A stretch of DNA of 64,000 nucleotides from an uncultured Bacteroidales bacterium (GCA_934717185.1 CAKUYQ010000016.1:3162-67161), one strand, 5' to 3'; counted from the stretch's first letter, positions 148-55,463 are shown. Translations and numbers: made by a program. The notes: a model not told the origin generated them from the letters alone.

Positions 148-1968
148 TTATTCAATATATTTTTTCAACCACACCTTTTCATCCTCATCCAAGTATGGCT
201 CCAATGTTGTGTAAACAGCTTCATTGTAGCTGTTTAACCAATCTATCTCATCTTTATTCAATATGGAGATAACAAGAGGGGTTTTATCAATTGGAACAAG
301 TGTAAATGTTTCAAATCTCAAAAAGCAGCCAAACTCGTTCTTAACCCAATCACGTGCGCAAATAACATTCTCTGTCCTTATTCCCCATTTGCCCTCAAAG
401 TAGATTGCAGGTTCGTTGGATATAACCATACCGTTTTTGATAGTAACAGGATTCTCCTCCATTCTTATGCTCTGCGGGCCTTCGTGTACACAAAGATTAT
501 GCCCTATCCCGTGACCTGTCCCATGGTAGAACATTGCGGCGTGGTTAAAGAGCGGACCCCTTGCAAGAATGTCCAATTGTGACCCTCTTGTTCCGGTAGG
601 AAATTTAGCCATGCTCAAATCAATCATACCCTTTAATACAAGAGTGTAGTATAGTTTCTGATTGTCGTCCAATTCTCCAATAGCTATTGTGCGTGTTGTG
701 TCTGTTGTGCCAAAGGTGTATTGTGCGCCGGTATCCATGAGCAGAAAGTTGTTTGAGCCAATTGCATTAGAGCTATCTTTGGTAGCGCTGTAATGGGGTA
801 GGGCTGCAGACGCTCCAAAGGCAACTATCGGTTCAAAGCTCTCCCCTCTGTAATCGGGGCACTCCTCTCTTAACTCCATAAGTCTTTCTCCAATGGAATA
901 TTCATCTAAAGGCTCCCCTTTATCAACAGATGAGTAGATATATTTTAACAACTTGCACCATGCAATACCGTCAAAAATGAAAGCTTTCTTAAAGCCGTTG
1001 ATCTCTGTCTCATTTTTTACAGATTTCATATTGGCTAAAATTCCACCCCTGCTGCAGTCCTCTACGCATATCCTTCCGTTGCCGGAAATCCTTAGATAAT
1101 CACTAAAGGATAATTTGTCGGGAAGATAAATCCTAACAGCATTTTGCGGAAGAGCAGACAGAAAATCTCTAAATTCAAAATAGTTGTGAACTCTTATCCC
1201 TGCCTTTTTTAATAAACCTTCAATTGCAGAGGGGGACTTTTCCATGTTGCAAAACAGGTTTATCCCCTTTTCATCTACCACTGCGTACGATTCAACTATG
1301 GGATTATACTCCACGTCATTGCCCCTTATGTTGCAGAGCCATGCAATGTCATCGCATGTGGTAACTATGTAGGCAAACTTTTCGGCAGGCAGGAAATATG
1401 GCTCCAGCTCCTTTACAAGCCTGTTGTACTTTGACTTTACAAGTTCTCCTGTTATCTCATAACCTCGGAGCTCTATACGTCCAAACTGCTCCGGCTTGCG
1501 TGATGGCCAGATATTGTACTCAGGCAGAGAGAATGGATCCTCCCCTGCAACAAGCTCTATTGGTTTAAGCTCTTTAGACAATGTGGCAAAATCATTTACG
1601 GAGTATAGAGTAGCATTAACACCAACCTTCTCTGCATGTTTCTCCGCCAACCACTGCGCTATTGAGGGGGTCCCGGGCATTTTCATCTTCATTAGTTTTA
1701 TTCCGGAACCATCCAATTCTCTTGCAGCCTGCACAAAATATCTTGAATCTGTCCAAAGCGCGGCATCTGTCAATGTTATTACCAATGTGCCTGCAGAGCC
1801 GGTAAATCCGCTCATCCATTCGCGTGCTTTAAAATGCTCCTGAACGTATTCGCCAAAGTGTTCACAATTGGATGGAATAACAAATGCGGACAGCCCCTTG
1901 TCTATAAGGTACTTCCGCATTCTCTCCAAACGTTGTGAAATAGTGATGGTCTCTATCTCATTACTCAT
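148..1968 (-). CDS. pepP: Xaa-Pro aminopeptidase (M24B, aminopeptidase P family)
   Basis: 606-aa ORF with the C-terminal M24 metal-binding signature HGTGHGIGHNLCVHEGP and NEPAIY. It has a long creatinase-like N-terminal half. Confidence 0.85.
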   Translation of the reverse strand: MSNEIETITISQRLERMRKYLIDKGLSAFVIPSNCEHFGEYVQEHFKAREWMSGFTGSAGTLVITLTDAALWTDSRYFVQAARELDGSGIKLMKMKMPGTPSIAQWLAEKHAEKVGVNATLYSVNDFATLSKELKPIELVAGEDPFSLPEYNIWPSRKPEQFGRIELRGYEITGELVKSKYNRLVKELEPYFLPAEKFAYIVTTCDDIAWLCNIRGNDVEYNPIVESYAVVDEKGINLFCNMEKSPSAIEGLLKKAGIRVHNYFEFRDFLSALPQNAVRIYLPDKLSFSDYLRISGNGRICVEDCSRGGILANMKSVKNETEINGFKKAFIFDGIAWCKLLKYIYSSVDKGEPLDEYSIGERLMELREECPDYRGESFEPIVAFGASAALPHYSATKDSSNAIGSNNFLLMDTGAQYTFGTTDTTRTIAIGELDDNQKLYYTLVLKGMIDLSMAKFPTGTRGSQLDILARGPLFNHAAMFYHGTGHGIGHNLCVHEGPQSIRMEENPVTIKNGMVISNEPAIYFEGKWGIRTENVICARDWVKNEFGCFLRFETFTLVPIDKTPLVISILNKDEIDWLNSYNEAVYTTLEPYLDEDEKVWLKKYIE

Positions 1969-2777
1969 TATAAAAGCGATTCTGAGTTAAGGTTCTTTTT
2001 CTCAATATCCTTGTAGTAGTTTACCGTGCCAACTTTAAGCTCGATTGTGGCCGCATCGTCGCATACAATTATCCCTTTTGGATGCATCTGCAGGATACTT
2101 ACTGTCCACATGTGGTTTACGGCACCTTCAACAGCTTGATACAGTGCGCGGGCTTTGTTATGTCCGTTTACAAGTATGAGTACCTCTTTTGCATCCATTA
2201 TGGTTCCAACGCCAACAGTAAGAGCTGTTTTTGGAACCTCGTTTATGTTATTGTTAAAGAAGCGTGAGTTGGCAATGATTGTATCTGTAGTAAGGGTCTT
2301 TACCCTGGTTCTGGATGTTAGGGATGACCCGGGTTCATTGAAAGCAATATGGCCGTCCGGGCCTATGCCTCCCATAAACAACTCAATACCGCCGTATGAT
2401 TTGATTTTCTCCTCATATCTCCGGCACTCCTCCTCTAAGTTTTTTGCGTTTCCGTTAAGTATATTAATGTTTTCAGGTTTTATGTTAACATACTTAAAGA
2501 AGTTGTTGTGCATGAAAGAATGGTAACTTTCGGGATGTGACTCCGGAATACCTATATATTCATCCATGTTAAATGTGACAACATTTTCAAAAGATACCTT
2601 ACCTGCCTCGTATAGATTTATAAGTTCTTTGTATGTCCCAAGAGGTGTAGAACCGGTTGGCAGACCCAATACAAATGGTTTATCTTTTGTAGGACCAAAA
2701 GCATTTATTCTACTAACAATGTATGCAGCAGCCCATTGTGAGAGTTGCTTATACGATTCCTGAATAATTAGTCTCAT
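1968..2777 (-). CDS. nagB: glucosamine-6-phosphate deaminase
   Basis: 269-aa ORF with GLPTGSTP and [17 protein letters not shown] motifs typical of NagB. Overlaps the pepP start by 1 nt. Confidence 0.92.
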
Positions 2778-10866: not shown

Positions 10867-12423
10867 TTAATTTTCTACAGAAATTGTAAAATCTTTATTG
10901 TACACGATATTCTTTGTTCCGGTGTTAAAGAATCCTGCATAATATCCAAAGTTGCTTTTGATTACAAAATTGGATTGAAACGCATTGTAGTCCCCATGCA
11001 GTCTTGCATAAGCCATATAGAATATGATATCGTATCCCTGAAAGGCGTATGGAGTAGGATATGTATTGTACAGAGCCTTATACCTCTCTACAAAAGACTT
11101 TGTCTGCGGATTGTCATAATCTACATAGTATGGCAGGGAGAGGTGCAGGTTAAGCTGATGCAGCTGGTAGATATCCAAGACCTCAAAATTTTTCCATTTA
11201 GGCATCCCAAACAACATTATAGGTCTCTCCTCTGTATTAAGAAGTGACAGATTTCTAATGGCATCGCTTACAAAAGCCTCATTGTTAGACGGTACTATTA
11301 CTATATTCATAATACGGTCTCTAAGAAGATTCTTTATTCTGCCCTCTACGGCCCTCCCCTCCAAAATATTGTAATGAAGCGAGCTGTAGCCTATATGCCT
11401 TTCGCTCAAACCTTTTGCAATGCTGTTCACATACAGCGAATCTGTATTGCCGCTTTCGTATATTATGACAACATTGGCAAAACTTCTGCTAAACTTGTCT
11501 GCGATATTATCAACTATTGAGTTGAGCTGGTGTTTAAGATCTGTGGGTATCTGTACAAATCTGTTGTAATGTGCGGCTAAAGAGGCTGCATTATGGTCCA
11601 TAGGAGAAACCAAGATGGTTCGGCCCTCAATGTATGGATGAATTGTCTCCAATTCGGCTTTTTTAACCGGGCCTATAACAATATCTTTTGCAGAAAACCT
11701 GCCGCTCTGCCCTATATCATCTATAGAGTTATAATCTCTCTGGTCTATTACATCCAATGAGACATCTACACCAAGAGAGGAGAGTGAATCCAATGCAAGG
11801 AGCGAACCAGCATAGAAGTCCATGAAGTTTGAGTTGAGATTGGCTGTGTCATTAGAATTGAATGGGAGAATTAGAGCGATATCTGTTTTTCTACCATACA
11901 GATCCGTTGTAAGGTTCTCATTGGTAAAAAACTGATCAGCTGTTGCGTTAACATTCTCCGTTTCATTCAAGGCTGTGCTATCTGCATGCAATTCCGTCTC
12001 ATTATCATTTTTTACCTCATTGCTACTCTCTTTGCTCTCGGCCTCTTCATTAGATCTTCTCAGTGCGAGAGCTATGCGCTCCTGTCTCGACAATCTCCTT
12101 TTCCTCTTGGACTCCTGCTTGCCGCTGCTCTTTTCATCAACGTTACCGCTTTGGTTGCTGCTTTGAGACAATTTGTCGGGAATATAAAGAATCATACCTG
12201 TCTTTAAGCCGTTGCCTAACACAGGGTTATTCTCTACAATCTCCTTTATGGAAACGTTATACGCCTTGGAGATAGAGTAGAGAGTCTCGCTTTGCTGCAC
12301 ATTGTGGACATATACAACAACTCCATCTTTCTTTATCTTGTCTTGCGCTATTTTCACATTGGTCTGGGCAGGTGCCGCGATTGTAACGGCAAGTATAATT
12401 GCCAAGGCATATAAACGTCTCAT
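10867..12423 (-). CDS. LysM domain protein with periplasmic-binding-protein-like C-terminal domain
   Basis: 518 aa. Signal peptide, then a LysM motif (VYVHNVQQSETLYSISKAYNVSIKEIVENNPVL), a low-complexity linker, and a large alpha/beta domain. Confidence 0.65.
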   Translation of the reverse strand: MRRLYALAIILAVTIAAPAQTNVKIAQDKIKKDGVVVYVHNVQQSETLYSISKAYNVSIKEIVENNPVLGNGLKTGMILYIPDKLSQSSNQSGNVDEKSSGKQESKRKRRLSRQERIALALRRSNEEAESKESSNEVKNDNETELHADSTALNETENVNATADQFFTNENLTTDLYGRKTDIALILPFNSNDTANLNSNFMDFYAGSLLALDSLSSLGVDVSLDVIDQRDYNSIDDIGQSGRFSAKDIVIGPVKKAELETIHPYIEGRTILVSPMDHNAASLAAHYNRFVQIPTDLKHQLNSIVDNIADKFSRSFANVVIIYESGNTDSLYVNSIAKGLSERHIGYSSLHYNILEGRAVEGRIKNLLRDRIMNIVIVPSNNEAFVSDAIRNLSLLNTEERPIMLFGMPKWKNFEVLDIYQLHQLNLHLSLPYYVDYDNPQTKSFVERYKALYNTYPTPYAFQGYDIIFYMAYARLHGDYNAFQSNFVIKSNFGYYAGFFNTGTKNIVYNKDFTISVEN

Positions 12424-13477: not shown

Positions 13478-14614
13478 TCATCTGCTTCCCGACAAATCTT
13501 TTTTGTAAAACTCTATAAGTCTGTTGCAGAAGGTTTTCCAAGACAACTCCTCCTTAACCCGCTCAATATTCTTTACATACTCCTCCCTAAGGGAGCTGTT
13601 GTCAAAATAGCTCTTTATGGCATTGGCTATAGTCTCCTTCCTGCAATCCTTTATTATCATGCCGGTACCCTTGTCGCCAATGGTCTCCTTAAGACCTCCA
13701 ACATCTGTTGTAATCATCGGGAGGTTAAAATTAAAACAGATGGAACTTATGCCGCTTTGAGTGGCAGACCTGTAAGGCAGCACACATACATCGGATGCAG
13801 AGAAATATGGTGATACGCAACTATCCTTAATGTAGCTTGTAGTTACACTTATGTTATCTCTGTAAGGAGAGCTGTCTATTAATGCCTCATATTTATCAAA
13901 ACTGCCGTATGGTTCTCCTGCAATGATAAGTTGGTAGGAGCCGTCCAAAAGATTAAAAGCCTCTATAAGCAGATCCAACCCTTTGTACTCTCTTATAAGC
14001 CCAAAAAAGAGAATATTCCTTTTATTGGGTTTTATTCCCAACTGTCTGCAAGCCTGTTCTTTGGAGATCTTTGCTCCAAAATGGGAGTAGAGTGGGTGAG
14101 GGGTAACCAAAACAGGCTTCTCTCTGTCGAACGAAAGAAGATCATTCCTTACAGCGTCACACAACACCACAAAGCCGTTGTTGGGCTTTAAGAACCATTT
14201 GGTAAACGGACGGTCAAAAAAATGCGGCTCATGCGGAATAACATTATCCAAAATGGAAACAACCTTGCAATCTCTTCCAACATGTCTCGCAACATAACCC
14301 AATGACGGAGCAAACCAACTCATCCAATACCTCATTATAAGAAGATCCGGATTAAATCTCCTAATAGCCTTTGCAGTAGAGATATATGTAAAAGGATTTG
14401 CCGTATCCAATAGAGCACAAGACTCTACCGGTACGGCATCATCATCTTTCGTAACATATTGAGTCTTACCCGGAAAGAGAATGTCTGGATACTGTCTCTT
14501 AAAATTAAAAGCTTTTACAGAATGCTCCTTTCCCAGTTCCTGCATCAAATATGTGTTAAACTGAGAAATACCACCTCTGTACGGGTAAAAGCAGGATAAT
14601 ATTGCTATTCTCAA
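13478..14614 (-). CDS. glycosyltransferase family 4 (group 1)
   Basis: 378 aa with a GT-B fold pattern and a C-terminal EX7E-like region (PYRSATQSGISSICFNFNLPMITTDVGGLKE). Confidence 0.75.
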   Translation of the reverse strand: MRIAILSCFYPYRGGISQFNTYLMQELGKEHSVKAFNFKRQYPDILFPGKTQYVTKDDDAVPVESCALLDTANPFTYISTAKAIRRFNPDLLIMRYWMSWFAPSLGYVARHVGRDCKVVSILDNVIPHEPHFFDRPFTKWFLKPNNGFVVLCDAVRNDLLSFDREKPVLVTPHPLYSHFGAKISKEQACRQLGIKPNKRNILFFGLIREYKGLDLLIEAFNLLDGSYQLIIAGEPYGSFDKYEALIDSSPYRDNISVTTSYIKDSCVSPYFSASDVCVLPYRSATQSGISSICFNFNLPMITTDVGGLKETIGDKGTGMIIKDCRKETIANAIKSYFDNSSLREEYVKNIERVKEELSWKTFCNRLIEFYKKDLSGSR

Positions 14615-27015: not shown

Positions 27016-27046
27016 CAAATGTAAACAAATTTTATTATAAAACAAA
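27016..27046 (-). promoter_or_regulatory. candidate Bacteroides sigma-A promoter for susC1
   Basis: The minus strand reads TTTG-N19-TACATTTG. This matches the TTTG / TAnnTTTG consensus with canonical spacing. It lies about 185 nt upstream of the susC1 ATG. Confidence 0.55.
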
Positions 27047-27067
27047 CTTCCCGACAAAAAGTTATTC
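27040..27067 (-). repeat. 28-bp repeat B, copy 1 (identical to 37046..37073)
   Basis: The reverse complement reads gaataactttttgtcgggaagtttgttt, identical to the sequence at 37046..37073. It contains the TTGTCGGGAAG motif and supplies the -33 TTTG of the susC1 promoter. Confidence 0.9.
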
Positions 27068-27120
27068 ACCTTTATGTTATTTACTGTAGTTCTTGCAGCA
27101 AGTGGGTGTCCCATCACCTC

Positions 27121-27171
27121 GCAACACCATAACCGCAATCCTTTATGGTGCACATTAGAGAAAAACTATCC
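27121..27171 (-). repeat. 51-bp repeat A, copy 1 (perfect inverted copy of 32208..32258)
   Basis: The reverse complement is ggatagtttttctctaatgtgcaccataaaggattgcggttatggtgttgc, identical over 51/51 nt to 32208..32258. It contains the internal palindrome CACCATAA-N10-TTATGGTG. Confidence 0.95.
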
Positions 27172-30210: not shown

Positions 30211-30295
30211 TTGTTGGGAAGAAAAATTTAATGATAAGAGAGATTAGTAGAGATAAACTCTAATTTTATAAACACTAAATAACATTTATATCAGT

Positions 30296-32207: not shown

Positions 32208-32258
32208 GGATAGTTTTTCTCTAATGTGCACCATAAAGGATTGCGGTTATGGTGTTGC
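32208..32258 (+). repeat. 51-bp repeat A, copy 2
   Basis: Identical to the reverse complement of 27121..27171. It ends 68 nt before the susC2 ATG. Confidence 0.95.
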
Positions 32259-32325
32259 AGAGGGGAGCAGACTATATAATTGAATCCATTTTTATTAACT
32301 TATTATTAACTAATTAAAGTAACTG

Positions 32326-35300
32326 ATGAAAAACATGCGACTATTGCTTACAGGGCTGTTGTGTTTTATAGCTGTGGGATTTGCATCTGCACAGAATATA
32401 AACGTTACAGGTACTGTTAAGGATGCGACCAACGGCGAGCCGGTTGGTTTCGCGTATGTGCAGATTAAAGGCACTACAACGGGAACTTCCACAAATGACG
32501 ATGGAACATTCTCAATTAAGGCCCCAAAAGACGGAGTCCTTATCTTCTCTTTTGTTGGCTACAAGACCACAGAAGTTGAGGTTAAAGGAAGAACTCACAT
32601 AGACGTTCTAATGGAGAGTGATGCCCTTGAGCTTGACGAGACCCTTGTTGTAGCCTATGGTACACAGAAAAAATCATCATTCGTAGGATCTGCTACCCAA
32701 TTGAAGGGTGAGTCTTTAAAGAAGATGCAGACATCAAACGTTTCCAAAGCACTTGAGGGTGCTGTAGCAGGTCTGCAGACTTCAAGTTCTTCCGGAACTC
32801 CCGGTTCGGGCGCAAGCATACAGATCCGTGGATTTGGCTCTGTAAGTGCTTCGAGAGATCCTCTTATTGTAGTGGACGGTACCCCTTATGAGGGCGGTTT
32901 GAACTCTATTCCGCCTCAGGATATTGAGTCTATTACAGTTCTTAAGGATGCTGCTGCAAACTCTATGTACGGTGCCCGTGGTTCTAATGGTGTTATCATG
33001 ATCACAACCAAGAGAGGTGTAGAGGGTAAAGTTACCATCAACTTTGATGCTAAGGTTGGTGTTAACTCAAGAGCTGTGCCTGCTTACGATGTAATCAGCA
33101 ATCCGGGCCAGTACTATGAGATGGCTTGGGAGGCAATGAGAAACTCTGTTTATTATGCAGGTACAATAGCAGATCTTGCAGAGGCAGGCAGATACGCTTC
33201 AGCTAATCTCATAAATGGTGACGGTGGCTTAGGCCCATATAACATCTATAAGAATGTTGCAGATGATGCCATTATAGACCCAACAACCGGCAAACTCAAT
33301 CCAAATGCCACAACCCGTAAATGGAATGACGACTGGAACAAAGATGTATTCCGTAACGGTTTACGTCAGGAGTACAGTTTGTCTGTATCAGGTGGTTCAG
33401 ACAAGACTCAAGGGTATATGTCTGTTTCTTACCTCGATGATGAGGGATATGTTCCAAAATCTGGTTTCAAGCGTATAGCTGTTAGAACCAAGTTGGATCA
33501 GACTGTTACAAGCTTCATTAAGGCTGGTATCAACCTTGCATACTCAAACACAGATCAGAATAGATATAATGACAATGAGAGTAACAACTACTCAAATATG
33601 TTCATGTTCACTCAGAATATAGCTCCTATCTATCCTATCTACCTTTATGATGAAAACGGTGTACGTCAGTACAATGCAAAGGGTGAGACCCTATACGATT
33701 GGGGTGAGACAGGCCGTGCATACGCACCTACCAGCAACCCTTACGGACAGGCTCTTACATCAAAGGCAAAGGATATTTCAGATAACGTGTCAACAAGAGG
33801 TTATGTGAATGTTAACATATTAAAGGATTTAGTATTCACTGCAAATGTTGCGTACGATGTATTCAACACAAAGAGAGATTACTATACAACTCCAAACGGT
33901 GGTGATGCAAAGAATGTTGGCGGACGTGGTGAACAGTATGGTGAGAGATATACAGCTCTTAATGCCAACCAACTTTTGACATGGTCTCCTTCATTTGGTG
34001 AGCACAATCTTAATGTACTTGTCGGTCACGAGACAAAATCAGACGACAGCTATGTCCTTTACGGTCACATGACAAACTTTGTAAACCCAACTGTAAGTGA
34101 CTTTGCTAATGCAACAGTTTATCAGGATCTGTCATCTTATAGAAGCGATTACTTCCTCGAGGGTGTATTCGGTAGAGTAGAGTATAACTATGCAAACAAA
34201 TACTACTTTACAGCATCATACCGTACAGATGGTTCATCTCGTTTTGCAAAAGATAAACGTTGGGGTAGCTTCTGGGCTGTTGGTGCATCTTGGAATGCAA
34301 AGGCCGAGAACTTCTTAAAGGATGTAGATTGGGTTGAACTTCTAAAGGTTAAGGCAAGTTACGGTACTCAAGGTAACGATAATATTGGTTACACCAAAGT
34401 ATATGAGAATCTATACAGAGTAGACAGGGTAGACGGTAGTGCTTCACTAACGCAGACTTTCCGTGCAGCTCCGGATGTAACTTGGGAGAAATCAAACAAC
34501 TTTAACGTTGGTATTGAGACAAGATTGTTCAACAGATTGTCTGTTAACGTTGAGTACTTCGTTAAAGAGACAAAGGATATGATCTATGCACAGCCTCTTG
34601 CTCCATCACAGGGTACTCCTGCTTCACAGCTTGTGAATGATATGGATATGAAGAATAGCGGTATTGAGTTTGAGATTAGCGCAGATCTGTTTAGAACAAA
34701 AGATTTCTCATGGAATATCTCATTGAACGGAACTCATTACAAGAACAAGATTACAAAACTTCCTTCGGATTATCCTGCAGAGGGTAAGCAGTATGGCGCA
34801 TTCTGGCGTGAAAAAGGCGGTTCACTGTTCAACTACTATATGTATGAGTGGGCCGGCGTAGACCAGACTAACGGTCTTCCTCAGTACTACAAATATGATG
34901 ATAACGGAGAGCGCTCTATTGTTAATACTACATCTGAGGCAACTTACCGCAAAACAGGCAAATCACCTATTCCTGATCTTTATGGTGGTATTGCTACAAC
35001 ATTTACATTCAAAGGCTTTGATTTGAGTGCAAACTTTGCATACCAGATTGGCGGCTATACAATAGACTATGCATATCAGGGTTTGATGTCTGCAGGTAGT
35101 TCAGGTACCAACTGGCATAAGGATATCCTAAACAGATGGACATCTGACAACACCAACACAGGTACTCCTCGTGTTCAGATGAACTATCAGGAGGCAAATG
35201 CTACTTCAACAAGATGGCTTACAAAATCATCTTACTTTAGCATAAGGAACCTTACTTTGGGCTACACAATTCCTCGCAGCATTACAAGCAAGATAGGCTT

Positions 35301-35477: not shown

Positions 35478-37001
35478 ATGATTATGAAAAAATATATATC
35501 AATATTAGCTTCAACAGTACTTTTGTTTACAGCCTGCGAGAAGTCTTTTGATGTAGAGAACACCAATCGCATGACCGGAACAGATGCTATTGCAAAAGTT
35601 GAGGAAGATCCTGAATTTCTTACCTCGTACGTAAATGGCTGTTATGCATGGTCAATTGAGTATAACAGCGGTGGTGGAAGCCACGGTGACTTTGGATTCT
35701 TGGGGGTAGTCTATAACACAGATATGATGGGTTTGGATATAGCCATCAAAGGATCATGGAACTGGGGTACATACGATATTAACCATGATTATGGTGCATA
35801 TAACTACAGACGCCCTTATCAGTTCTGGAACTTTTTCTACACCCAGATTAAAAAGGCTAACGAGATTATAGATATGTTTGGAGAAGAAGATCCAACAGAT
35901 TCAAATCTAAAAGGATGGCTTGGACAGGCATACGCCCTTAGAGCATTTGGATATACTTATCTTATACAGCTTTTCCAGGATCCTGTTGAGGGAACTACCC
36001 CTAATGCAAAATTTAGGGATTCTGCCCCTGCAGTTCCAATTATCTACTCTGTAAGAGATGGTAAATCAAATGAGGAGGCAGCACAGGTTGGTGGACGTAA
36101 CACAATGGCAGATCTTAAGACAGAGATTGAGCGTAATATAGAGAAAGCTCTTCCTCTTCTTCAAGGCTATAAGAGGGCTTCCAAAAATGAGATCAACTAT
36201 GAGGTTGCTCAGGGTATAGCAGCACGCTACTACCTTCTTACCCAGCAATGGAGCAAAGCTATTTCAGCTGCTCAGGCTGCTCAGAATGGCTTTGATATAA
36301 TGGATCAGACCCGTCTTCTTTCGGGCTTTATGGAGATAGAGGACGCAGAGGTTATGTGGGGATTCAACCATACAACCGAGACTATGACATCATACGCTTC
36401 ATTCTTCTCACACCTAAGTAACGACAGCCCGGGTTATGGTGGAGTAGGCCAGTCTATTCACTGTATAGACCGCAGTTTGTATGATCAGATTCCTGCTACA
36501 GACTATAGAAAGGATCTGTTTAATGATGAGAACGGTGATCCTAATGCAGAAATGACAGGTGCAAAGATGGCATACGCTGCAAGAAAATTCGGCTATGCTG
36601 CCTCATGGTTGCAGGATTACATCTATATGCGTAATGCAGAGATGGTTCTTATAGAGGCTGAGGCTCATGCACGTCTTGCAGACGGTCAGGCAGCTTCAAC
36701 TCTTGCAAAACTTATGGCAAAAAGAGATCCTGCATGGTCTGCATCTAATGTTACTGTAGACGATGTTCTTCTCCAGAGAAGAATTGAGTTGTGGGGCGAG
36801 GGCTTTGAGTACTTCGACCTAAGACGTAACGGTATAACAGTTAACAGAAAATATGAGGGCACTAACCATGCAGCAGCTGCTCAGTATGAATTCCCTGCTC
36901 ATAGCGCAAGCTGGAATTTCCAGATTCCTAGACAGGAGATGCAGAATAATATGTACATCACAGAGGATGAACAGAATGATTGGGTAACAGGCGCTATGTA
37001 A
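35478..37001 (+). CDS. SusD/RagB family nutrient-binding outer membrane lipoprotein
   Basis: 507 aa with lipobox LLFTAC. The C-terminal RRIELWGEGFEYFDLRR motif is characteristic of the RagB/SusD family. The start may be M3 (35484). Confidence 0.88.
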   Translation: MIMKKYISILASTVLLFTACEKSFDVENTNRMTGTDAIAKVEEDPEFLTSYVNGCYAWSIEYNSGGGSHGDFGFLGVVYNTDMMGLDIAIKGSWNWGTYDINHDYGAYNYRRPYQFWNFFYTQIKKANEIIDMFGEEDPTDSNLKGWLGQAYALRAFGYTYLIQLFQDPVEGTTPNAKFRDSAPAVPIIYSVRDGKSNEEAAQVGGRNTMADLKTEIERNIEKALPLLQGYKRASKNEINYEVAQGIAARYYLLTQQWSKAISAAQAAQNGFDIMDQTRLLSGFMEIEDAEVMWGFNHTTETMTSYASFFSHLSNDSPGYGGVGQSIHCIDRSLYDQIPATDYRKDLFNDENGDPNAEMTGAKMAYAARKFGYAASWLQDYIYMRNAEMVLIEAEAHARLADGQAASTLAKLMAKRDPAWSASNVTVDDVLLQRRIELWGEGFEYFDLRRNGITVNRKYEGTNHAAAAQYEFPAHSASWNFQIPRQEMQNNMYITEDEQNDWVTGAM

Positions 37002-37035
37002 TTAATTAGCCAACAAGTACTTAGTTGGTTTTATG

Positions 37036-37073
37036 CTTCCCGACAGAATAACTTTTTGTCGGGAAGTTTGTTT
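37036..37073 (+). terminator. intrinsic terminator after susD2, built from an inverted pair of the CTTCCCGACA motif
   Basis: Perfect 10-bp stem cttcccgaca / tgtcgggaag (37036..37045 and 37057..37066), an 11-nt loop, then tttgttt. Confidence 0.75.
37046..37073 (+). repeat. 28-bp repeat B, copy 2
   Basis: gaataactttttgtcgggaagtttgttt, identical to the reverse complement of 27040..27067. Confidence 0.9.
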
Positions 37074-38370
37074 ATTGATTGTTTCTGTTGTATTTCTCAA
37101 AGAAGTTGTTCTCTATATTGTACCACTCCTTTCTGTTGAAGTCTTTTGGCATGGTGTACAGATAGTACTCTTTGGATGATGGTATGAGATTGTAGATGAA
37201 AAAGTTGTTTAGAGGATGACTCTCGCTCTCCTGCAATCCTATCTCTATTAAAAACGGAGCGTTAAGGGCTTTTGCTATATATGGAAATCTGAATTTGGTG
37301 CTGTTGAGCAGTTCATCTGTAAACAGCGGAGCGTATGTTGCGCATCCGCCAATCCTTTTGTCTGTTGCCGCAATGGTTGTTGCAATTACTGCTCCTTTGC
37401 CGCAACCCTCCGTAAAGATTTTATCTTTGTCTGTAATCCTCTTGCTGTCAATAAAATCTACTACCATAGACGCATCTCTGCAGAGCTGCAGATAGTCTGT
37501 ATCTTGTGTGCTTTTTATAACAACAAACTCAATCAGATTGGGATTGTCGTTTGGATTAACAGCGCATTCATTCTCTTTGCAGTAGTCAAACCGTATTACA
37601 GTAGGATGGCTTCTTTTCTTTACAAGTGAGAATACACCATCTTTTGGCACAAAGTAGTAACCTTTTATTGTGCGGTTGTTTTTGGCCGGAATCTCAACCA
37701 AATACATTTTCCGTTCTTTGTTATCTGATGATTTTATTTTTGTAATCCTATAGTCCTGCTTCACAACCAACGGCTTGTTGTTTATGGCAGATGCCAGGGA
37801 ATCGCAATATTTTGCGGCTGCCTCTTTGGATACCTCCTTCATATTTGGAAATCTTCCTAATCCAGATTCGCTGTCTATCCTCTGCGGCTCGTATGCTATG
37901 TTGTACCTGTAGTAGAAATGTACCCCCGAATCTTGCTGGTTTCTTATCTCAACATTGTATATTCCCGGCAACGGTGAGTTAAATGCAAATGAGATAAGAG
38001 TACTGTCTCCGCTGTCTATAGATGTCTCCTGTACAAATGAGTAGAGTGGCTTGCCGGGGAGCTGTTCAATATTGCATTTTATGTTAAACTTTTCTTTCTT
38101 GTAGTTTGTGTTGACTGCAGATAATGAGACTTTCGGGCTTTCACTTCCGTAGTATACCCAAGAACTGTTCATATAAAGGTAGTAGATGAAATCCCCTTTT
38201 ATGAATTTTAGTTTATCTTTTGTCCTTATTGGCTCTTCGTAGGCTTTCTGATACAGCCTTATCTCCTCTCCGTTTCTCTCCTGTGCACTCATTGGATGAT
38301 ACAGTGTGCTGCAAACAAGAGTTGTTGCCAATATTAGTTTAATGGAGTATGTGATCTTCTTTTTTGTCAT
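37072..38370 (-). CDS. secreted CE7/acetyl-xylan-esterase-like alpha/beta-fold protein, nucleophile motif apparently degenerate
   Basis: 432 aa with a signal peptide. The C-terminal half resembles the AXE1/CE7 layout, but GCGKG occupies the GxSQG position. Its start overlaps the murI stop by 4 nt. Confidence 0.4.
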   Translation of the reverse strand: MTKKKITYSIKLILATTLVCSTLYHPMSAQERNGEEIRLYQKAYEEPIRTKDKLKFIKGDFIYYLYMNSSWVYYGSESPKVSLSAVNTNYKKEKFNIKCNIEQLPGKPLYSFVQETSIDSGDSTLISFAFNSPLPGIYNVEIRNQQDSGVHFYYRYNIAYEPQRIDSESGLGRFPNMKEVSKEAAAKYCDSLASAINNKPLVVKQDYRITKIKSSDNKERKMYLVEIPAKNNRTIKGYYFVPKDGVFSLVKKRSHPTVIRFDYCKENECAVNPNDNPNLIEFVVIKSTQDTDYLQLCRDASMVVDFIDSKRITDKDKIFTEGCGKGAVIATTIAATDKRIGGCATYAPLFTDELLNSTKFRFPYIAKALNAPFLIEIGLQESESHPLNNFFIYNLIPSSKEYYLYTMPKDFNRKEWYNIENNFFEKYNRNNQ

Positions 38371-39167
38371 ATCTGCAAGTTTTGGTAATAAGTCTTATGG
38401 TCCTCTGTTGTACTGCTTTTGATTATTGATTCCGCCATGTTTCTCACAAGAGAAAGGTTCTCTCCCGTGCTGCAAAAGGTTGTTGTTCCCGTTGAATCAT
38501 TGTCGGGAAGCAGATTCATGTTTTTTAAAATGTTGGCGGCCCTCTGTGCGACTGCCGGAGCGGGGTTTACTATTTTCATCCGCTTCCCGACAATTTTTCT
38601 TATAGGCTCTATAAGGAAAGGGTAGTGGGTGCACCCAAGAACGAGCTGGTCTGCATTCTGCGCAAGCATTGGGGTTATATATTGAGACAGCAGTGCAAGT
38701 GCCTCTTCTGTATCTGTTTTTCCCTCTTCGACCAACTCTACAAGGCCGTCTCCTGCCTGCTCTATAACTTTCTTGTTGTAGGCGTATATGTTTCTGGTAT
38801 TCTGGTAAAGAGTGCCTTTAAATGTTCCTCTTGTGGCAAGAACACCAATTACTCCTGTCTTTGTATTAAGCGCGGCCGGTTTTACTGCCGGCTCCATCCC
38901 CACTATTGGCAGGGTGTAGAGCTTTCTTAATGTGCTTATAGCTCCTGCGGTGGCTGTATTGCAGGCTATGACAATTATATCTGCCTTCTGTGCAATAAGG
39001 TAGTCGCAGATGACTCTGCATCTGTCTATTATCTCCTCTCTATGCTTTGGACCGTACGGACAATTGCCGGAATCTGCTATGTAGAGATAATTGGCATTGG
39101 GCAGTAACTTTATAAGCTCTTTCCATACGGAAAGCCCACCTACACCTGAATCGAATACGCCTATCAT
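38367..39167 (-). CDS. murI: glutamate racemase
   Basis: MIGVFDSGVGGLSV at the N-terminus, with IVIACNTA and LGCTHYP catalytic-Cys motifs. The ORF track starts at 39236, but the conserved N-terminus begins at 39167. Confidence 0.9.
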   Translation of the reverse strand: MIGVFDSGVGGLSVWKELIKLLPNANYLYIADSGNCPYGPKHREEIIDRCRVICDYLIAQKADIIVIACNTATAGAISTLRKLYTLPIVGMEPAVKPAALNTKTGVIGVLATRGTFKGTLYQNTRNIYAYNKKVIEQAGDGLVELVEEGKTDTEEALALLSQYITPMLAQNADQLVLGCTHYPFLIEPIRKIVGKRMKIVNPAPAVAQRAANILKNMNLLPDNDSTGTTTFCSTGENLSLVRNMAESIIKSSTTEDHKTYYQNLQI

Positions 39168-44920: not shown

Positions 44921-47900
44921 TTAATCCAAATTCACGCTGAGTCCAAGGCCTCTTAGTTCGTGAAGCAATACATTGAGTGATTCAGGAATGCCCGGTGTAG
45001 GCATAGGATCACCTTTTACTATAGCCTCGTATGCTCTTGATCTTCCGGTAACATCGTCTGACTTTATAGTAAGGATCTCCTGAAGTACATTCGATGCTCC
45101 GAATGCTTCAAGTGCCCAAACCTCCATCTCTCCAAATCTCTGGCCTCCAAACTGTGCCTTACCTCCCAACGGCTGCTGGGTAATAAGTGAGTATGGTCCA
45201 ATTGAACGTGCGTGCATCTTGTCATCTACCATGTGTCCCAATTTGATCATGTAGGTAACGCCAACGGTAGCAGGCTGGTCAAAGTACTCTCCGGTACCGC
45301 CGTCCCTCAAATATGTCTTACCATATCTTGGCAGACCTGCCTTGTCTGTATATTCGCATATATCCTCCAAGGTAGCACCGTCAAAGATAGGGGTGGCGAA
45401 CTTAAGACCAAGCTCTTTACCTGCCCATCCCAATACAGCCTCGTAGATCTGTCCCAAGTTCATACGAGATGGCACACCAAGAGGGTTAAGTACAATATCT
45501 ACCAATGTACCGTCATCAAGGAAAGGCATATCCTCATCTCTTACAACTTTGGCAACGATACCTTTGTTACCGTGTCTACCTGCCATCTTGTCTCCAACTC
45601 TAATCTTTCTCTTCTTGGCAACATAAACCTTGGCAAGCTGCATGATACCTGTTGGAAGTTCGTCTCCGATTGTGAGATTGTATTTTATCCTCTTAAGCTC
45701 TGCATCGTACTCCTTATGAGCAATAAGGTAGTTGTTAACAAGAGACTTTATCATGTCGTTGGTGTGAGCGTCCGATGTCCAGTTGACAGGATTTATATTC
45801 TCATAATCCAATGTCTCCAAAACCTCAAAGCTGAATTTGCTTCCTTTGGCAATAAGCTCCACACCGTAAAGGTCGTTTACACCCTGAGACTCTTTACCTT
45901 TAACAAGAATCATCAGTTTGTCCAAGAATTTGGCTCTCAACTCTCCTGCCTTTCGGTTAAAGTCATCCTCTGCCGCCTGAATCTGTACCTTTGTGTTATT
46001 CTTTATCTTCTTGCCTGAACCCTCTTTACCTACGCGGGCAAACAGTCTTTTTCCTATTATAGTTCCCGACAACGATGGAGATGCCTTTAATGATGCATCC
46101 TTTACATCACCTGCCTTGTCGCCGAAGATTGCTCTAAGAAGTTTCTCCTCCGGAGATGGATCGCTTTCACCCTTAGGGGTAATCTTACCTATAAGAATAT
46201 CACCAGGCTCAACATTGGCACCAACCCTAATAATACCGTTAGAGTCAAGATCCTTGGTGGCATCCTCGCTTACGTTAGGAATGTCTGAGGTCAACTCCTC
46301 CATTCCGCGTTTGGTATCTCTTACCTCCATTATATATTCATCTACGTGAATAGATGTAAAGATATCCTCTCTTATTATTCTTTCAGACAAAACAATAGCA
46401 TCCTCAAAGTTGTATCCCTTCCAAGGCATGTACGCAACCTTAAGGTTTCTTCCAAGAGCGAGCTCTCCGTTTTGTGTTGCATATCCCTCTGTAAGAATCT
46501 GACCTTTTACTACATGGTCTCCCTTTCTTACAATAGGTTTAAGCAGGATGGATGTGCTCTGGTTGGTCTTGCGGTAGATTGGCAGATTGTAGACTGTAAT
46601 CTCAGGATCGAAGCTTACAAATTTTTCGTCATCTGTACGCTCGTATTTAACATGAATCTGAGTAGCGTCTACATACACTATCTCGCCATCTTTCTCTGCA
46701 GATACCTGTGTGCGTGAGTCCTTTACAACAGGACCCTCAAGACCTGTTCCAACGATAGGAGCCTCGGGCGATACCAAAGGTACTGCCTGTCTCATCATGT
46801 TTGATCCCATCAACGCACGGTTGGCATCATCGTGCTCGAGGAATGTGATGAGTGATGCGGCTATTGAGGCAATCTGGTTAGGAGCAACATCCATAAGGTC
46901 TACCTCATCCTTGCCTACTACAGGGTAGTCTGCCTCAAGACGGCACTTGATACGCTCATCTGTGAGGTTACCCTCCTCATCCAAATGTGCGTTTGCCTGT
47001 GCCACCATCTTGTCCTCCTCCTCCTCTGCACTCATATATACGCATCCGTTTGGAGACATATCAACCTTACCGTTGTTTACCTTTCTGTAAGGGGTCTCTA
47101 TGAAACCAAGGTCGTTGATTCTCGCGTACACGCAAAGTGAGGAGATAAGACCAATGTTAGGTCCCTCAGGTGTCTCAATAGGGCACAAACGTCCGTAGTG
47201 AGTATAGTGTACGTCTCGCACCTCAAATCCTGCGCGGTCTCTTGAAAGACCTCCGGGACCCAAAGCGGAAAGCCTTCTCTTGTGGGTCATCTCTGCCAAT
47301 GGATTGGTCTGGTCCATGAACTGAGACAACTGGCTGGTTCCAAAGAATGAGTTTATGACAGATGAGAGTGTTTTTGCATTGATAAGGTCTATTGGTGTAA
47401 AGACCTCATTGTCTCTCACATTCATTCTCTCCCTTATTGTTCTTGCCATACGTGCAAGACCAACGCTAAACTGGTTTGCCAACTGTTCGCCAACGGTTCT
47501 TATACGACGGTTACTAAGGTGGTCTATATCGTCTACGGTAGCTTTACCGTTTATAAGTTGAATCAAATATCTTATAATCTCAATTATGTCTGCCTTTGTA
47601 AGTACCCTTACATCTGTAGGTGTGCTGAGATTAAGTTTTCTGTTAAGGCGGTAACGACCTACATCGCCAAGGTCATAACGTTTGTCGGAGAAGAACAACT
47701 TGTCTATTACATCTCTTGCAGTAGCCTCGTCCGGTGGTTCCGAACTTCTTAGCTGTCTGTATGTAAATATGATAGCCTCTTTCTCCGTATTTGTCTGGTC
47801 CTTTTGCAAGGTATTGTGGATGATTGCGAACTCATTGGTAGAGGGATCGTCCTTGTGTACTAAAATGGTACTTACGCCGGAATCCAATATCTCGTCTATG

Positions 47901-53482: not shown

Positions 53483-53539
53483 AATATGTCAATCCCCTCT
53501 GATGCGTGTCTAAAACACTTTTCTTTTCGTTTGGGATTG

Positions 53540-53571: not shown

Positions 53572-53597
53572 TATTTTTGGCATATTTTTTTGTAAAT

Positions 53598-55463
53598 TTA
53601 GTTGCTTCTATTCCATTCCTCTATTAATAAGGCAACTATATCATCTACATTGTACCTGCACATACTTATAAGTTCCTCCACCGTCCCCTGTTCAACAAAT
53701 TTGTCGGGAATACCCATACCTATAATCTTTACGGGTTTTCTGCATGACACATATTCGCATATTGCACCGTAGAGCCCCCCCTTAACGGTACCGTCCTCTA
53801 TGGTTATTATCTTGTCGTAGCTGTTGAGGATTTTATCTACAAGTTCTGTGTCTAAGGGTTTAAGGAAGCGCATGTCGTAGTGCCCCGGGGTTATTCCCTG
53901 TGCCTTGAGCTGTTCTGTTGCTTTGGCTACCCTGTTGCCGGTTGTTCCCAACGAGAGGATTGCTATTCTGCTTCCCGACAATATCTCGCGGCCCTTTCCC
54001 GGCTCTATAAAGGTGTATTCGTTTGGGAGCGGAAGGCCTTCGCATTTGCCTCTTGGGTATCTTATGGCGGTGGCTCCGTATTGCTCCTGAGTCGCCGAGT
54101 ACATTATGTTACGCAGCTCTATCTCATTCATGGGAGCGGCTATCGTAATGTTTGGAATGGGACGTAGGTAGGCAAGATCGAATGCGCCGTGGTGTGTTGC
54201 GCCATCCTCGCCAACCAATCCTGCCCTGTCTATGCAGAAGATTACCTTAAGGTTCTGCAGGGCTACATCGTGTACGATGTTGTCGTATGCTCTCTGCAGG
54301 AATGTTGAGTAGATATTGCAGAACGGAAGTGCCCCTGCTGCTGCCAATCCTGCCGAAAATGTTACCGCATGCTCCTCTGCTATGCCAACGTCAAAGCTGC
54401 GGTTGGGGAACACCTTCATCATGCCTGTCATGGAGCAACCGCTTGCCATTGCCGGTGTTATTCCAACAATATTTGGATTGGTTTCTGCTAAATCTATTAT
54501 GGTGCTGCCAAAGATCTCTTGGTATTTGAGCCTGTTGTCGCTGCTTTTTACCCTTTCTCCGGTCTTAATGTCAAAGGTGCCGGGTGCGTGCCAGACGGTC
54601 TGGTTCTGCTCGGCAGGTTTGTAGCCTTTCCCTTTTATTGTGCGTACATGCAGGATTTTTGGCCCGCGTATATCCTTTATGTTGGTGAGGGTTGTTACAA
54701 GCTGCCCTATATCGTTGCCGTCTATTGTGCCAAAGTACCTGAATCCCATGGCTTCAAAGAGGGTTCCGTTTTTAAGTAGTGCAGATTTTGTTGTAATCCA
54801 GAATTTTTGGATTAACCTGCGTACGCGCCCGTTGCCAAGCCTGTTCCAGACTTTGTTCTTTACCTTATTATATAAAGGGGAGGTGGACAGCTTCACAAGA
54901 TAGTTGTGCATTGCACCTACATTCTTGTCTATTGAGATCTGGTTGTCGTTGAGGATAACTAAAATGTCTGAATTCATTGAGCCTGCATTGTTCAATGCTT
55001 CGTATGCCAAGCCTCCCGACAAAGCACCGTCTCCTATCACCGCTATTATGTGGTTATGCAGCCCCTGCAGCTGCTCCCCAACGGCAATACCAAGCGCCCC
55101 CGAAATGGAGGTTGATGTGTGTCCTGCTCCAAATGGATCGTATTCGCTCTCCGATCTTTTTGTGAAACCGCTCAGCCCGTTGAGTTTTCTGTTGTTCTTA
55201 AAGGCCTCTTTTCTGCCGGTTAGAATCTTGTGGGCGTATGCCTGATGTCCTACATCCCAGATGAGCTTGTCGTTAGGTGTATTAAAGACGTAATGTATAC
55301 CCACGGCAAGTTCAACAGCACCAAGACTTGCTCCAAGATGCCCGGGATTCTTTGCGCAGCACTCTATCATATATTCTCTTATCTCATCGCACAGAATGCC
55401 GAGCTTGTCTATGCTCAGGCCTCTTATATCTTTGGGATAGTTGATATTGTCTAATAGTTTCAC
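53598..55463 (-). CDS. dxs: 1-deoxy-D-xylulose-5-phosphate synthase
   Basis: 621 aa with GHQAYAHKILTGR and the GDGALSGGLAYEALNNAG TPP motif. The layout is transketolase-like. Confidence 0.95.
   Translation of the reverse strand: MKLLDNINYPKDIRGLSIDKLGILCDEIREYMIECCAKNPGHLGASLGAVELAVGIHYVFNTPNDKLIWDVGHQAYAHKILTGRKEAFKNNRKLNGLSGFTKRSESEYDPFGAGHTSTSISGALGIAVGEQLQGLHNHIIAVIGDGALSGGLAYEALNNAGSMNSDILVILNDNQISIDKNVGAMHNYLVKLSTSPLYNKVKNKVWNRLGNGRVRRLIQKFWITTKSALLKNGTLFEAMGFRYFGTIDGNDIGQLVTTLTNIKDIRGPKILHVRTIKGKGYKPAEQNQTVWHAPGTFDIKTGERVKSSDNRLKYQEIFGSTIIDLAETNPNIVGITPAMASGCSMTGMMKVFPNRSFDVGIAEEHAVTFSAGLAAAGALPFCNIYSTFLQRAYDNIVHDVALQNLKVIFCIDRAGLVGEDGATHHGAFDLAYLRPIPNITIAAPMNEIELRNIMYSATQEQYGATAIRYPRGKCEGLPLPNEYTFIEPGKGREILSGSRIAILSLGTTGNRVAKATEQLKAQGITPGHYDMRFLKPLDTELVDKILNSYDKIITIEDGTVKGGLYGAICEYVSCRKPVKIIGMGIPDKFVEQGTVEELISMCRYNVDDIVALLIEEWNRSN

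Follow-up and report, generated by a model that had tools for sequence, protein, structure and literature searches.

The closest described systems are the DNA uptake sequences (DUS) of the Neisseriaceae, which are words of 10-12 nucleotides read by the minor pilin ComP, and the uptake signal sequences (USS) of the Pasteurellaceae, in which a 9-mer core is accompanied by flanking AT-rich segments. These classical sequences number 1,471-1,892 per roughly 2 Mb genome, and they are reported to favour poorly conserved amino acids and particular reading frames (PMC2817400). Natural competence is present in the Bacteroidales, viz. in P. gingivalis (PMC3268665), and the Bacteroidota species Riemerella columbina prefers its own DNA, a convincing uptake word not having been found there (PMC7965970). 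The original prediction for the DNA considered here, a 64-kb stretch from an uncultured Bacteroidales bacterium that we will refer to as the window, was that a strongly over-represented 10-mer, TTCCCGACAA, constitutes a candidate uptake signal. To our knowledge, uptake signals have not been described from this phylum.

In the window, TTCCCGACAA is by a wide margin the top over-represented word. All ten exact copies that had been reported, five per strand, were confirmed at their coordinates and on their strands, which amounts to about one copy in every 6 kb. The expected count is 0.13 based upon 100 dinucleotide shuffles, none of which gave 10 copies, and 0.03 under an order-3 Markov simulation, and hence the strong excess over chance is borne out. 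Two of these copies (27048 and 37056) are part of a single 28-nt repeat and are not independent, so that the ten copies represent nine independent events. The 15-mer TCTGCTTCCCGACAA was likewise found to occur three times, being exact at 13481 (+), 38500 (-) and 53967 (+). The copies and related features are listed below.

1115..1124, minus strand: exact copy, sense in the M24 (Xaa-Pro) peptidase gene 148-1968; CTT CCC GAC AAA = LPDK; present also in conspecific contigs L315-L318
12173..12182, minus strand: exact copy, sense in the LysM-domain protein gene 10867-12423; ATT CCC GAC AAA = IPDK
13481..13495, plus strand: exact 15-mer, antisense in the final codons of the group-1 glycosyltransferase gene 13478-14614; TTG TCG GGA AGC AGA TGA = LSGSR and stop
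27048..27057, plus strand: exact copy, intergenic; flanked by a susC-like gene (23654-26830) and, divergent from it, the POR gene (27346)
30211..30220, minus strand: one-mismatch copy TTCCCAACAA, exact in five other conspecific assemblies
37035..37067, no strand assigned: bidirectional terminator-like hairpin between convergent susD-like (35478-37001) and AXE1-like (37072-38370) genes
38500..38514, minus strand: exact 15-mer, sense in murI; CTG CTT CCC GAC AAT = LLPDN; hypervariable protein loop
38584..38593, plus strand: exact copy, antisense in murI, 84 nt from the preceding copy and inverted to it; ATT GTC GGG AAG = IVGK
46063..46072, plus strand: exact copy, antisense in rpoB; TTG TCG GGA ACT = LSGT
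53701..53710, minus strand: exact copy, sense in dxs; ATT CCC GAC AAA = IPDK; conserved GIPD[KR] peptide
53967..53981, plus strand: exact 15-mer, antisense in dxs; TTG TCG GGA AGC AGA = LSGSR; variable protein part
59586..59595, plus strand: one-mismatch copy TTCCCCACAA, exact in all ten conspecific contigs L249-L258
3959, 9619, 30211, 37037, 37962, 44351, 55013, 55847, 59586, 60678, 62936: starts of the one-mismatch copies

The genes which harbour these copies are six housekeeping genes, and they carry the word in both orientations and in several frames. Eight of the 10 window copies lie inside conserved housekeeping genes, where no insertion is seen in comparison to the homologues, and when the related loci are included 34 of 44 copies are genic and 10 intergenic, with the genic ones located in variable regions of housekeeping proteins. 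The spread of the word through core genes that was proposed earlier is upheld. Upstream of the word the flanks of different copies resemble one another for about 8 nt and downstream for 2 nt, and beyond this they are unrelated, due to which a mobile repeat is rejected. The REP and MITE elements that were considered as candidates are set aside on these same observations. An artefact, whether from a dispersed mobile repeat of this kind, from a single recurrent peptide whose codons are fixed or from base composition, could draw upon the two of ten copies that share a 28-nt repeat and upon the limitation of the sense-strand window copies to one frame. However, it is contradicted by the unrelated flanks, by the uninterrupted housekeeping genes, by the use of three frames in the window and six in related loci in addition to intergenic copies, and by an expectation of at most 0.13 copies from the shuffles and the order-3 Markov model, and it is already refuted. 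On the sequence examined, neither a near-expected frequency, nor a single fixed-codon peptide, nor a mobile repeat was found.

The motif is wider than the 10-mer. Its extended consensus is approximately A-w-T-n-T-G-C-T-TCCCGACA-A-A, or in short form ATCTGC-TTCCCGACAA with the core TCCCGACA. The 10 motif positions are invariant and the flanks are informative at -8, -6 and -4 to -1, so that the information extends asymmetrically over about 16-18 bp. The window contains 11 one-mismatch copies in comparison to 2.4 expected, and 50 two-mismatch copies in comparison to 44 expected; hence, the excess peaks sharply at the exact word, around which the one-mismatch copies make up a small halo. The existence of one-mismatch variants was correctly noted, but their number was given as six rather than 11 and their coordinates were displaced by 0-17 nt.

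The peptides that had been read from the copies, LPDK, IPDK and LPDN in sense and LSGS(R), LSGT and (I)VGK(R) in antisense, agree with our translations. Genic copies in the window comprise four in sense and four in antisense orientation, those in sense all being in a single frame. The several reading frames that had been claimed are indeed used, the window alone accounting for only three of six and all six being represented once the related loci are added. Within the window, the word spells 4/5 of the [LIVF]PD[KN] peptides, 3/5 of the LSGx peptides and 1/5 of the xVG[KN] peptides, whereas codon usage predicts only 0.3-1.6%. With other loci added these proportions are 16/19, 9/16 and 5/10, respectively. 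The codons needed are rare ones (CCC makes up 11% of the codons for Pro, TCG 9% of those for Ser, GTC 7% of those for Val and GGG 11% of those for Gly). The rpoB copy is purely synonymous: LSG is written TTG TCG GGA here and CTC AGC GGT in the motif-free relative L319, in which the entire LSGT reads CTC AGC GGT ACA, and among strains the motif is invariant in rpoB and the adjacent synonymous sites vary. Amino acid changes are needed for one dxs copy and for a third dxs copy present in L255 only; at this additional site, 4 of the 10 motif positions are changed. The codon and peptide tests, together with the synonymous rpoB site, bear out the claim of selection on DNA and not on protein; neither the peptides nor codon usage, but the DNA itself, is what the constraint acts upon.

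A bias in repair or gene conversion that is sequence-specific, for example by a very-short-patch-like (VSP) nickase or a mismatch system, could also write at the DNA level by converting near-cognate sites to the cognate word, in which case the word would be a by-product with no signal function. The sharp peak of the exact word with its small halo, the clustered changes among strains at motif sites, as in the dxs gene of L255, and the near saturation of compatible peptides are all consistent with such a process. However, known VSP-type systems act at methylation sites of 4-5 bp and not at asymmetric words of 10-15 bp, and none of the one-mismatch variants was depleted in particular, TTCCCGATAA instead recurring with three copies. 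The genes near the copies included no candidate for a methyltransferase or an endonuclease. Conversion bias is considered an improbable source of the word.

The orientation of the copies is also informative. The strand totals are 21 (+) and 27 (-), and adjacent copies are co-oriented in only 11 of 32 cases over 182 kb, which differs from a polarity of 75% (p = 0.001) and of 90% (p = 4e-9). Even within an 18-kb run of same-strand genes (37-55 kb) there are three copies per strand. The absence of strand skew noted at the outset, with five copies on either strand of the window, is therefore confirmed. These results bear on the possibility that the word is a recombination hotspot of the Chi type or an architecture signal similar to KOPS or AIMS, with RecBCD/AddAB or FtsK as its reader. 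Such signals resemble the present word in their dispersal and enrichment in core genes, their upkeep at the DNA level, including synonymous sites, and their spacing of one per few kb, the present word, at about 1 per 6 kb, being similar in density to Chi in E. coli. However, they are polar and strongly co-oriented with replication, and in every known Chi or KOPS the information is limited to 5-8 nt, whereas the present word is polarity-free and holds 10-15 nt or more. In view of the lack of polarity, a signal of this type is rejected, and we regard it as very improbable.

The terminator between the susD-like and AXE1-like genes was originally described as formed from two inverted copies of the word. 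The terminator itself is well supported, as the hairpin has a 14-pair stem followed by the T-rich TTGTTTATTG and a folding z-score of -6.8, but only one of its arms is an exact copy (37056-37065, minus strand), the other being a one-mismatch copy (37037-37046, plus strand, TTCCCGACAG). A perfect inverted pair occupies the same terminator place in L003, and in L001 the inverted pair is absent from it. The stretch 27040-27067, which includes the copy at 27048, is identical to the terminator arm at 37046-37073, which includes that at 37056, and the two form a 28-nt perfect inverted repeat. The copy at 27048 forms no hairpin. As the same 28-mer sits after a susD gene in strain L333, this copy looks like a former terminator arm, now a relic. 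Four close inverted pairs are present outside the window, but three of them came from a search aimed at just this arrangement, and hence an enrichment of the word in terminators is not established by them.

Orthologous sites are retained among conspecific strains, and also among sister lineages whose nucleotide identity is 91% and 76-84%. In murI, the two sites are invariant in L001 and in L003 (76% nucleotide identity), and the rpoB and dxs sites are retained in 10/10 strains (L249-L258; 92-98% identity), the rpoB site also in L001. Two one-mismatch sites of the window (30211 and 59586) are exact in other strains. In the sister lineage L259, both murI sites have decayed. Four distinct relatives with EF-Tu at least 90% identical have no exact copy in about 84 kb, the word being absent from L319 and L325-L330; conservation in sister lineages and absence from outgroups are therefore both observed. 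No alternative dialect of the word was clear in the relatives, TTCTCGACAA, found twice in L319, being at most a hint. The distribution across Bacteroidales is patchy, with the murI sites lost in L259 and with one exact and one near copy in 21 kb of the outgroup L262. Among the matches listed, UMGS715 is the only genome with multiple matches to the 15-mer, and it contains seven copies beyond the seven seeds in 54 kb over seven contigs; similarly, the hairpin-seeded contigs L146, L185 and L186 contain, over 26.5 kb, five copies in addition to their seeds. Single matches to the 15-mer numbered 51 in IMG/VR, which is about the chance level, with two extra copies of the 10-mer in 426 kb, in viruses not tied to this host.

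A genome-wide signal on double-stranded DNA, free of orientation, confined to one or a few lineages and maintained by selection or drive upon the DNA, is the best explanation of these observations. Its reader may be a protein unconnected with uptake. The word would then be the high-affinity site of another lineage-specific chromosomal DNA-binding protein, such as a factor for nucleoid organisation, segregation or occlusion, or else a mark of 'self' for a defence or repair system, with selection keeping a site every few kb. This possibility, which we consider unlikely though worthy of attention, predicts the same footprint (DNA-level, orientation-free, dispersed in core genes, conserved and lineage-specific), and the asymmetric information of about 16-18 bp fits the site of a monomeric protein. 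The density is also below that of classical uptake sequences. Additionally, the same 11-mer occurs as a perfect palindrome in ParB genes and in palindrome arrays on other elements, and in view of these locations the palindromic form looks like a protein-binding site there. However, single copies are not dispersed around the palindrome loci, the GC content of which is also different, and the ParB link is therefore probably coincidental. The known sites of this kind, viz. NBS of Noc, SBS of SlmA, matS of MatP and parS, are palindromic and intragenic and number tens per genome, as against one per 6 kb here. Palindromic sites of the parS, NBS or SBS type were rejected as candidates, the window copies being single half-words and the 23-bp palindrome being found only on other elements. 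Further, organismal selection hardly accounts for the use of the word in more than 80% of compatible peptides, a saturation which self-reinforcing drive fits better.

Based upon our analysis, a DUS/USS-like uptake or self-recognition motif is the most probable of the readings, and we place its probability at roughly 0.45. Part of the machinery for DNA uptake (natural competence) would bind the word preferentially, and the uptake and recombination of fragments from the own species would be more frequent when they carry it. Alleles creating or keeping the word would then spread by molecular drive wherever the protein tolerates them, and intergenic copies may be recruited in inverted pairs as terminators. 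We infer in this reading that an uptake machine would be the reader of the word and that these bacteria would be competent. The patchy distribution and low density count against uptake. The window and some 100 kb of related contigs, amounting to about 5% of a genome, showed no gene for ComEC, ComEA, DprA, ComF, a pilus or a secretin. The sequence-level arguments of the original prediction all stand and are now stronger, and its functional part is that of a candidate only.

Among other known systems, HIP1 (GCGATCGC) of cyanobacteria is similarly hyper-abundant, intragenic in all frames, lineage-specific and kept up at synonymous sites; however, it is a palindromic octamer with a cognate methyltransferase, whereas the present word is asymmetric and longer. 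The function of HIP1 is still debated. With USS, the word shares a core with graded flank information, a one-mismatch halo, a preference for particular frames and poorly conserved residues, and an inflation of the encoded peptides (PMC2817400). It differs in that the frames of USS track preferred codons and the present word uses rare ones. The density here is about five times lower than that of classical DUS and USS. In comparison to DUS, the word is unrelated in sequence and belongs to another phylum, and neither a ComP-like receptor nor a type IV pilus nor a competence phenotype is known for the present lineage. It is alike in being short and asymmetric, with a strong core that is extended more weakly on the 5' side, and in being enriched hundreds-fold in both orientations, with intragenic copies, inverted pairs in terminators and orthologous sites shared by related species. 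Of the attributes that mark DUS and USS, over-representation (in the window and in UMGS715), absence of orientation bias, origin at the DNA level with one terminator pair, and conservation of orthologous sites with lineage restriction and absence from distant relatives are demonstrated for this word. As judged from its nucleotide pattern, the word in these human-gut Bacteroidales resembles the imprint that uptake signals have left in Neisseria and Haemophilus.

The word TTCCCGACAA was originally predicted to occur ten times in the window, and all ten exact copies were recovered at the predicted positions, five on the plus strand (13486, 27048, 38584, 46063, and 53972) and five as reverse complements (1115, 12173, 37056, 38500, and 53701), together with the three predicted occurrences of its 15-mer extension TCTGCTTCCCGACAA. 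The expected number of 10-mer copies is 0.13 based upon dinucleotide-preserving shuffles of the window, none of which (0 of 100) reached ten, and 0.03 based upon order-3 Markov simulation. In the latter simulation, the 11 one-mismatch copies observed compare with 2.4 expected and the 50 two-mismatch copies with 44 expected, and the mismatch spectrum peaks sharply at the exact word and has a small halo around it. Relative to the order-3 Markov expectation, the 10-mer is enriched 190-fold and CTTCCCGACAA about 590-fold, and an unbiased k-mer census of the window at lengths 8 to 11 picked out no strongly over-represented word other than this one and its sub-words. The predicted list of one-mismatch variants required correction, as copies were missing from it and coordinates were wrong by up to 17 nt. 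One such variant, TTCCCGATAA (GAC to GAT), is present three times in the window (at 3959, 9619, and 60678), with two of these three sites retained in other strains (L315–L317), being either tolerated as a variant or the decay product that arises most often.

Eight of the window copies are located within genes, viz. those for an M24 peptidase, a LysM protein, a group-1 glycosyltransferase, murI (two copies, both in variable regions of the protein), rpoB, and dxs (two copies), all of which are housekeeping genes. Every one of the four sense-strand copies reads xTT CCC GAC AAx, encoding [LI]PD[KN], and the four antisense copies read either TTG TCG GGA Axx (LSGx) or xTT GTC GGG AAx (xVGK). As sense and antisense copies are equal in number, an RNA-level signal is ruled out. 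Rfam and tRNA scans found no RNA gene overlapping a motif copy. The two other copies, at 37056 and 27048, are intergenic. Two inverted copies had been predicted to form a terminator, and a terminator-like hairpin of 14 pairs, flanked by convergent genes, is indeed present, but it is formed by the exact copy at 37056 and a one-mismatch copy at 37037. The copy at 27048 forms no hairpin. It lies within a 28-nt segment that is identical to one arm of the 37037/37056 terminator and that was found 3' of a susD gene in another strain; being probably a relic terminator arm, this copy was not counted as an independent event. On the upstream side the flanks of the copies are unrelated past about 8 nt, and on the downstream side past about 2 nt. 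On the sequence examined, the word was neither close to its expected frequency, nor explained by one repeated peptide with fixed codons, nor part of a dispersed mobile repeat, and an origin from a mobile repeat, a repeated peptide or a composition artefact is refuted.

The codons that make up the word are uncommon in the window, where CCC accounts for 11% of Pro, TCG for 9% of Ser, GTC for 7% of Val, and GGG for 11% of Gly codons, and the share of peptides spelled with the word that is predicted from codon usage is 0.3–1.6%. The observed shares in the window are 4 of 5 for [LIVF]PD[KN], 3 of 5 for LSGx, and 1 of 5 for xVG[KN]. When other motif-rich loci are added, some of which were themselves retrieved via the motif, the totals become 16/19, 9/16, and 5/10, respectively; all six frames are used in these other loci, and intergenic copies number 10 of 44. 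The encoded peptides are ordinary and their codons unusual, and the force acts on DNA. The clearest single case is provided by rpoB, where Leu-Ser-Gly is written TTG TCG GGA in four motif-carrying lineages that differ from each other at the flanking synonymous positions; in L319, a motif-free relative, the same Leu-Ser-Gly-Thr is written CTC AGC GGT ACA. In dxs, one copy lies on the conserved GIPD[KR] peptide and arises through synonymous choice, and the second is in a variable stretch whose residues differ in relatives. The dxs gene of strain L255 carries a third copy, which arose via four changes in ten bases, including Asn-Glu to Asp-Lys. A sequence-specific conversion bias, which would have produced the word at the DNA level, is regarded as an improbable source of this pattern.

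The predicted lack of polarity was borne out in 182 kb of motif-rich sequence. The strand counts there are 21 and 27 copies, and neighbouring copies share the same orientation in 11 of 32 cases, by which 75% polarity is rejected at p = 0.001 and 90% polarity at p = 4e-9. Adjacent copies lean, if anything, towards inverted orientation. The missing polarity and the length of the word argue against signals of the Chi, KOPS, or AIMS type, and a Chi-like signal is considered highly improbable. A profile built from 76 instances of the core TCCCGACA, with search seeds excluded, indicates that the extended site is asymmetric and about 16–18 bp long, with a graded flank 5' of a hard core.

Table. Preferred bases around the core (76 instances).
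Position -8: A in 42/76
Position -6: T in 53/76
Position -4: T in 35/76
Position -3: G or T in 62/76
Position -2: C in 43/76
Position -1: T in 56/76
Position +8: A in 66/76
Position +9: A or T in 63/76

The source organism is an uncultured Bacteroidales of the human gut. Its EF-Tu and M24 peptidase recur as exact copies in a large number of gut assemblies, among them Hadza samples, and one retrieved contig matches 21 kb of the window at 100% identity. In ten conspecific contigs (L249–L258) of 92–98% identity, the rpoB copy and both dxs copies are retained in all ten, some other copies are polymorphic among strains, and at two of the window's one-mismatch sites, 30211 and 59586, most other strains have the exact word. 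Both murI copies are unchanged in the sister lineages L001 (91% nucleotide identity) and L003 (76–84%), where neighbouring bases differ; at the terminator position, L003 has a perfect inverted pair and L001 has lost the pair. In the L259 lineage, at a distance similar to that of the sister lineages, both murI sites have decayed and there are zero copies in 5 kb. A switched "dialect" of the word in this lineage was rejected, as the two murI sites bear different substitutions, which points to decay. In a scan with the 15-mer of one genome per species, the matches listed were mostly single chance matches; the uncultured Bacteroidales UMGS715 had seven 15-mer blocks among the matches listed, and these contain seven more copies beyond the seeds in 54 kb. 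Other enriched Bacteroidales-like contigs are L095, L098, L012, L051, L146, L185, and L186. Four distinct relatives with EF-Tu at least 90% identical (rpoB about 72% identical in nucleotides, GC 48–50%) contain no exact copies in about 84 kb over the same genes. Based upon the conservation among strains and sister lineages, UMGS715, and these negative controls, the enrichment is real, spread across many contigs, heritable, and confined to certain lineages. Extension to the left of the window added 3.5 kb of new sequence and zero new copies, and a scan of viral contigs found no phage enriched in the word.

A number of other features were noted in these contigs. L319 contains TTCTCGACAA twice in 21 kb (at 17456 and 20345), once with the full upstream flank ATCTGC, and this may be a variant word of that lineage or chance. 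Segment 61035–63130 of the window, covering a fucosidase and the end of a CutC-transglutaminase gene, is only 87–89% identical in 6 of the 10 conspecific contigs (L249, L251, L252, L255, L256, and L258), in which the adjoining 19 kb is 92–95% identical to the window. This drop in identity indicates two haplotypes, probably due to recombination import, and the divergent one carries two additional exact motif copies. L012 and L051, which hold extra motif copies, are MAG contigs labelled Candidatus Egerieisoma (Clostridiaceae in the NCBI taxonomy); their ORFs have Bacteroidetes-type lipoprotein signals and lack Shine-Dalgarno-like sequences, and the label or else the binning is doubtful. Additionally, a 68-nt intergenic segment of L146 (11811–11876), an unrelated motif-rich metagenome contig, is 96% identical to segments of L331 (17750–17817) and L335 (10992–11059), both conspecific with the organism of the window.

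A metagenome search for inverted pairs of the word yielded Bacteroidales-type hairpins in 5 of 125 matches and was dominated by a perfect 23-bp palindrome, CTTCCCGACAA-N-TTGTCGGGAAG, which contains the 11-mer of the window motif. This palindrome lies within ParB-family genes (peptide ...DLTSRQ[VLIF]VGKLE...) with ParA adjoining, at loci L125–L244 (e.g., L144 2283–3338) and L245–L248; the contigs concerned are four viral ones and human-gut contigs with a GC content of about 49%. Two palindromes a few hundred bases apart occur at some of the loci. Dispersed single copies of the word are absent from the palindrome loci, and a PLSDB search with the palindrome-bearing ParB gene gave no near match. 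In L219 (6480–7200), an intergenic array between an HsdR-like type I restriction gene and a large serine recombinase gene holds no fewer than 12 different palindromes, built as CTTC..CAA-N-TTG..GAAG or xCCAA-N-TTGGx, of which the motif palindrome is one member; their stems co-vary around a constant CAA-N-TTG centre. The ParB palindrome is probably separate from the window motif, its resemblance being coincidental, and an integrative element or plasmid may use it as a parS-like site.

The window also contains a POR-TPP-gdh module at 27.1–32.4 kb, bordered by a perfect 51-nt inverted repeat that is located upstream of two divergent susC-like genes.

Table. The 51-nt inverted repeat and the partners of the module (loci L331–L336).
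27121–27171 and 32208–32258: inverted repeat I1, within 27114–27171 and 32208–32360
Window and L332: susC (1058 aa) and susC (1046 aa)
L331 and L334: inverted susC1046-susD-AXE1-murI and susC (1003 aa)
L333: susC1003 and another susC1058-susD528

In conspecific assemblies, the module is thus found in three different susC-locus combinations, and the sister contigs L001 and L003 also break close to the repeat. This rearrangement resembles the outcome of recombination or inversion between the leader repeats of susC genes, in the manner of a promoter- or PUL-switching shufflon. Inversion between such repeats has been described for the SusC/SusD loci of Bacteroides fragilis.

The original prediction of an uptake-signal-like motif was soundly reasoned, and the observation behind it is confirmed. 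Natural competence occurs in the Bacteroidales, in P. gingivalis (PMC3268665), and Riemerella columbina, also of the Bacteroidota, prefers its own DNA, a k-mer hunt there having led only to weakly enriched A-rich words (PMC7965970). Competence is thus far reported in this phylum for P. gingivalis and Riemerella, and a convincing uptake word has not been found (PMC3268665; PMC7965970). Our literature searches with the 10-mers and 11-mers, over 8 million papers, returned only primer or oligonucleotide coincidences, and those on uptake sequences in Bacteroidetes found nothing relevant; the literature searched held no description of the word. Given its match in properties with DUS and USS and the competence reported in Bacteroidota, the most likely mechanism, with a probability of roughly 45%, is that the word serves for uptake or self-recognition and is maintained by uptake-biased recombination. 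From a DNA word under drive or selection we infer one that would be read by an uptake machine, and uptake function is proposed as a well-founded hypothesis. No competence gene was seen in the window and the related contigs inspected. The main rival, that the word is the site of some other lineage-specific DNA-binding protein, is considered unlikely.

Sequence-specific DNA uptake is, to our knowledge, confined to two proteobacterial families, and gene flow in gut Bacteroidales is usually ascribed to conjugation and phages. It is possible, with the odds somewhat against it, that this word is a true DNA uptake sequence, which would make it the first one known from outside the Proteobacteria, such that a group of uncultured gut Bacteroidales would be naturally competent and recognise their own DNA via approximately ATCTGCTTCCCGACAA, uptake-biased recombination having remodelled the codons and even amino acids of their core genes. 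A DUS/USS-like word would imply own-DNA-preferring transformation in a major gut order, and its addition to donor DNA could provide genetic access to uncultured or recalcitrant lineages. Since the motif is present in some close relatives and absent from others, the receptor question would be open to phylogenetic profiling, and comparison of motif-rich and motif-free genomes could lead to a new kind of uptake-specificity receptor, in uncultured Bacteroidales of the human and animal gut. Should the word be read by something other than an uptake machine, it remains a clear case in which a DNA-level force prevails over the codon usage and the protein sequence of essential genes, and it can serve as a practical marker to bin these genomes and to detect foreign DNA in them.

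We know of no signal class other than the DNA uptake sequences of Neisseriaceae and Pasteurellaceae that has all of the properties seen here. Like DNA uptake sequences, the word is asymmetric, about 10–15 nt long, enriched hundreds-fold and orientation-free, it is co-opted in a terminator and common to close relatives only, and it is written into core genes at the cost of codon usage and sometimes of residues; its hard core and graded 5' flank are also the architecture of DUS and USS. Its density is five-fold below that of the classical cases. The frame preferences, poorly conserved residues and inflated encoded peptides described for uptake sequences by Findlay and Redfield (PMC2817400) are matched in part by the behaviour of the word in coding regions.
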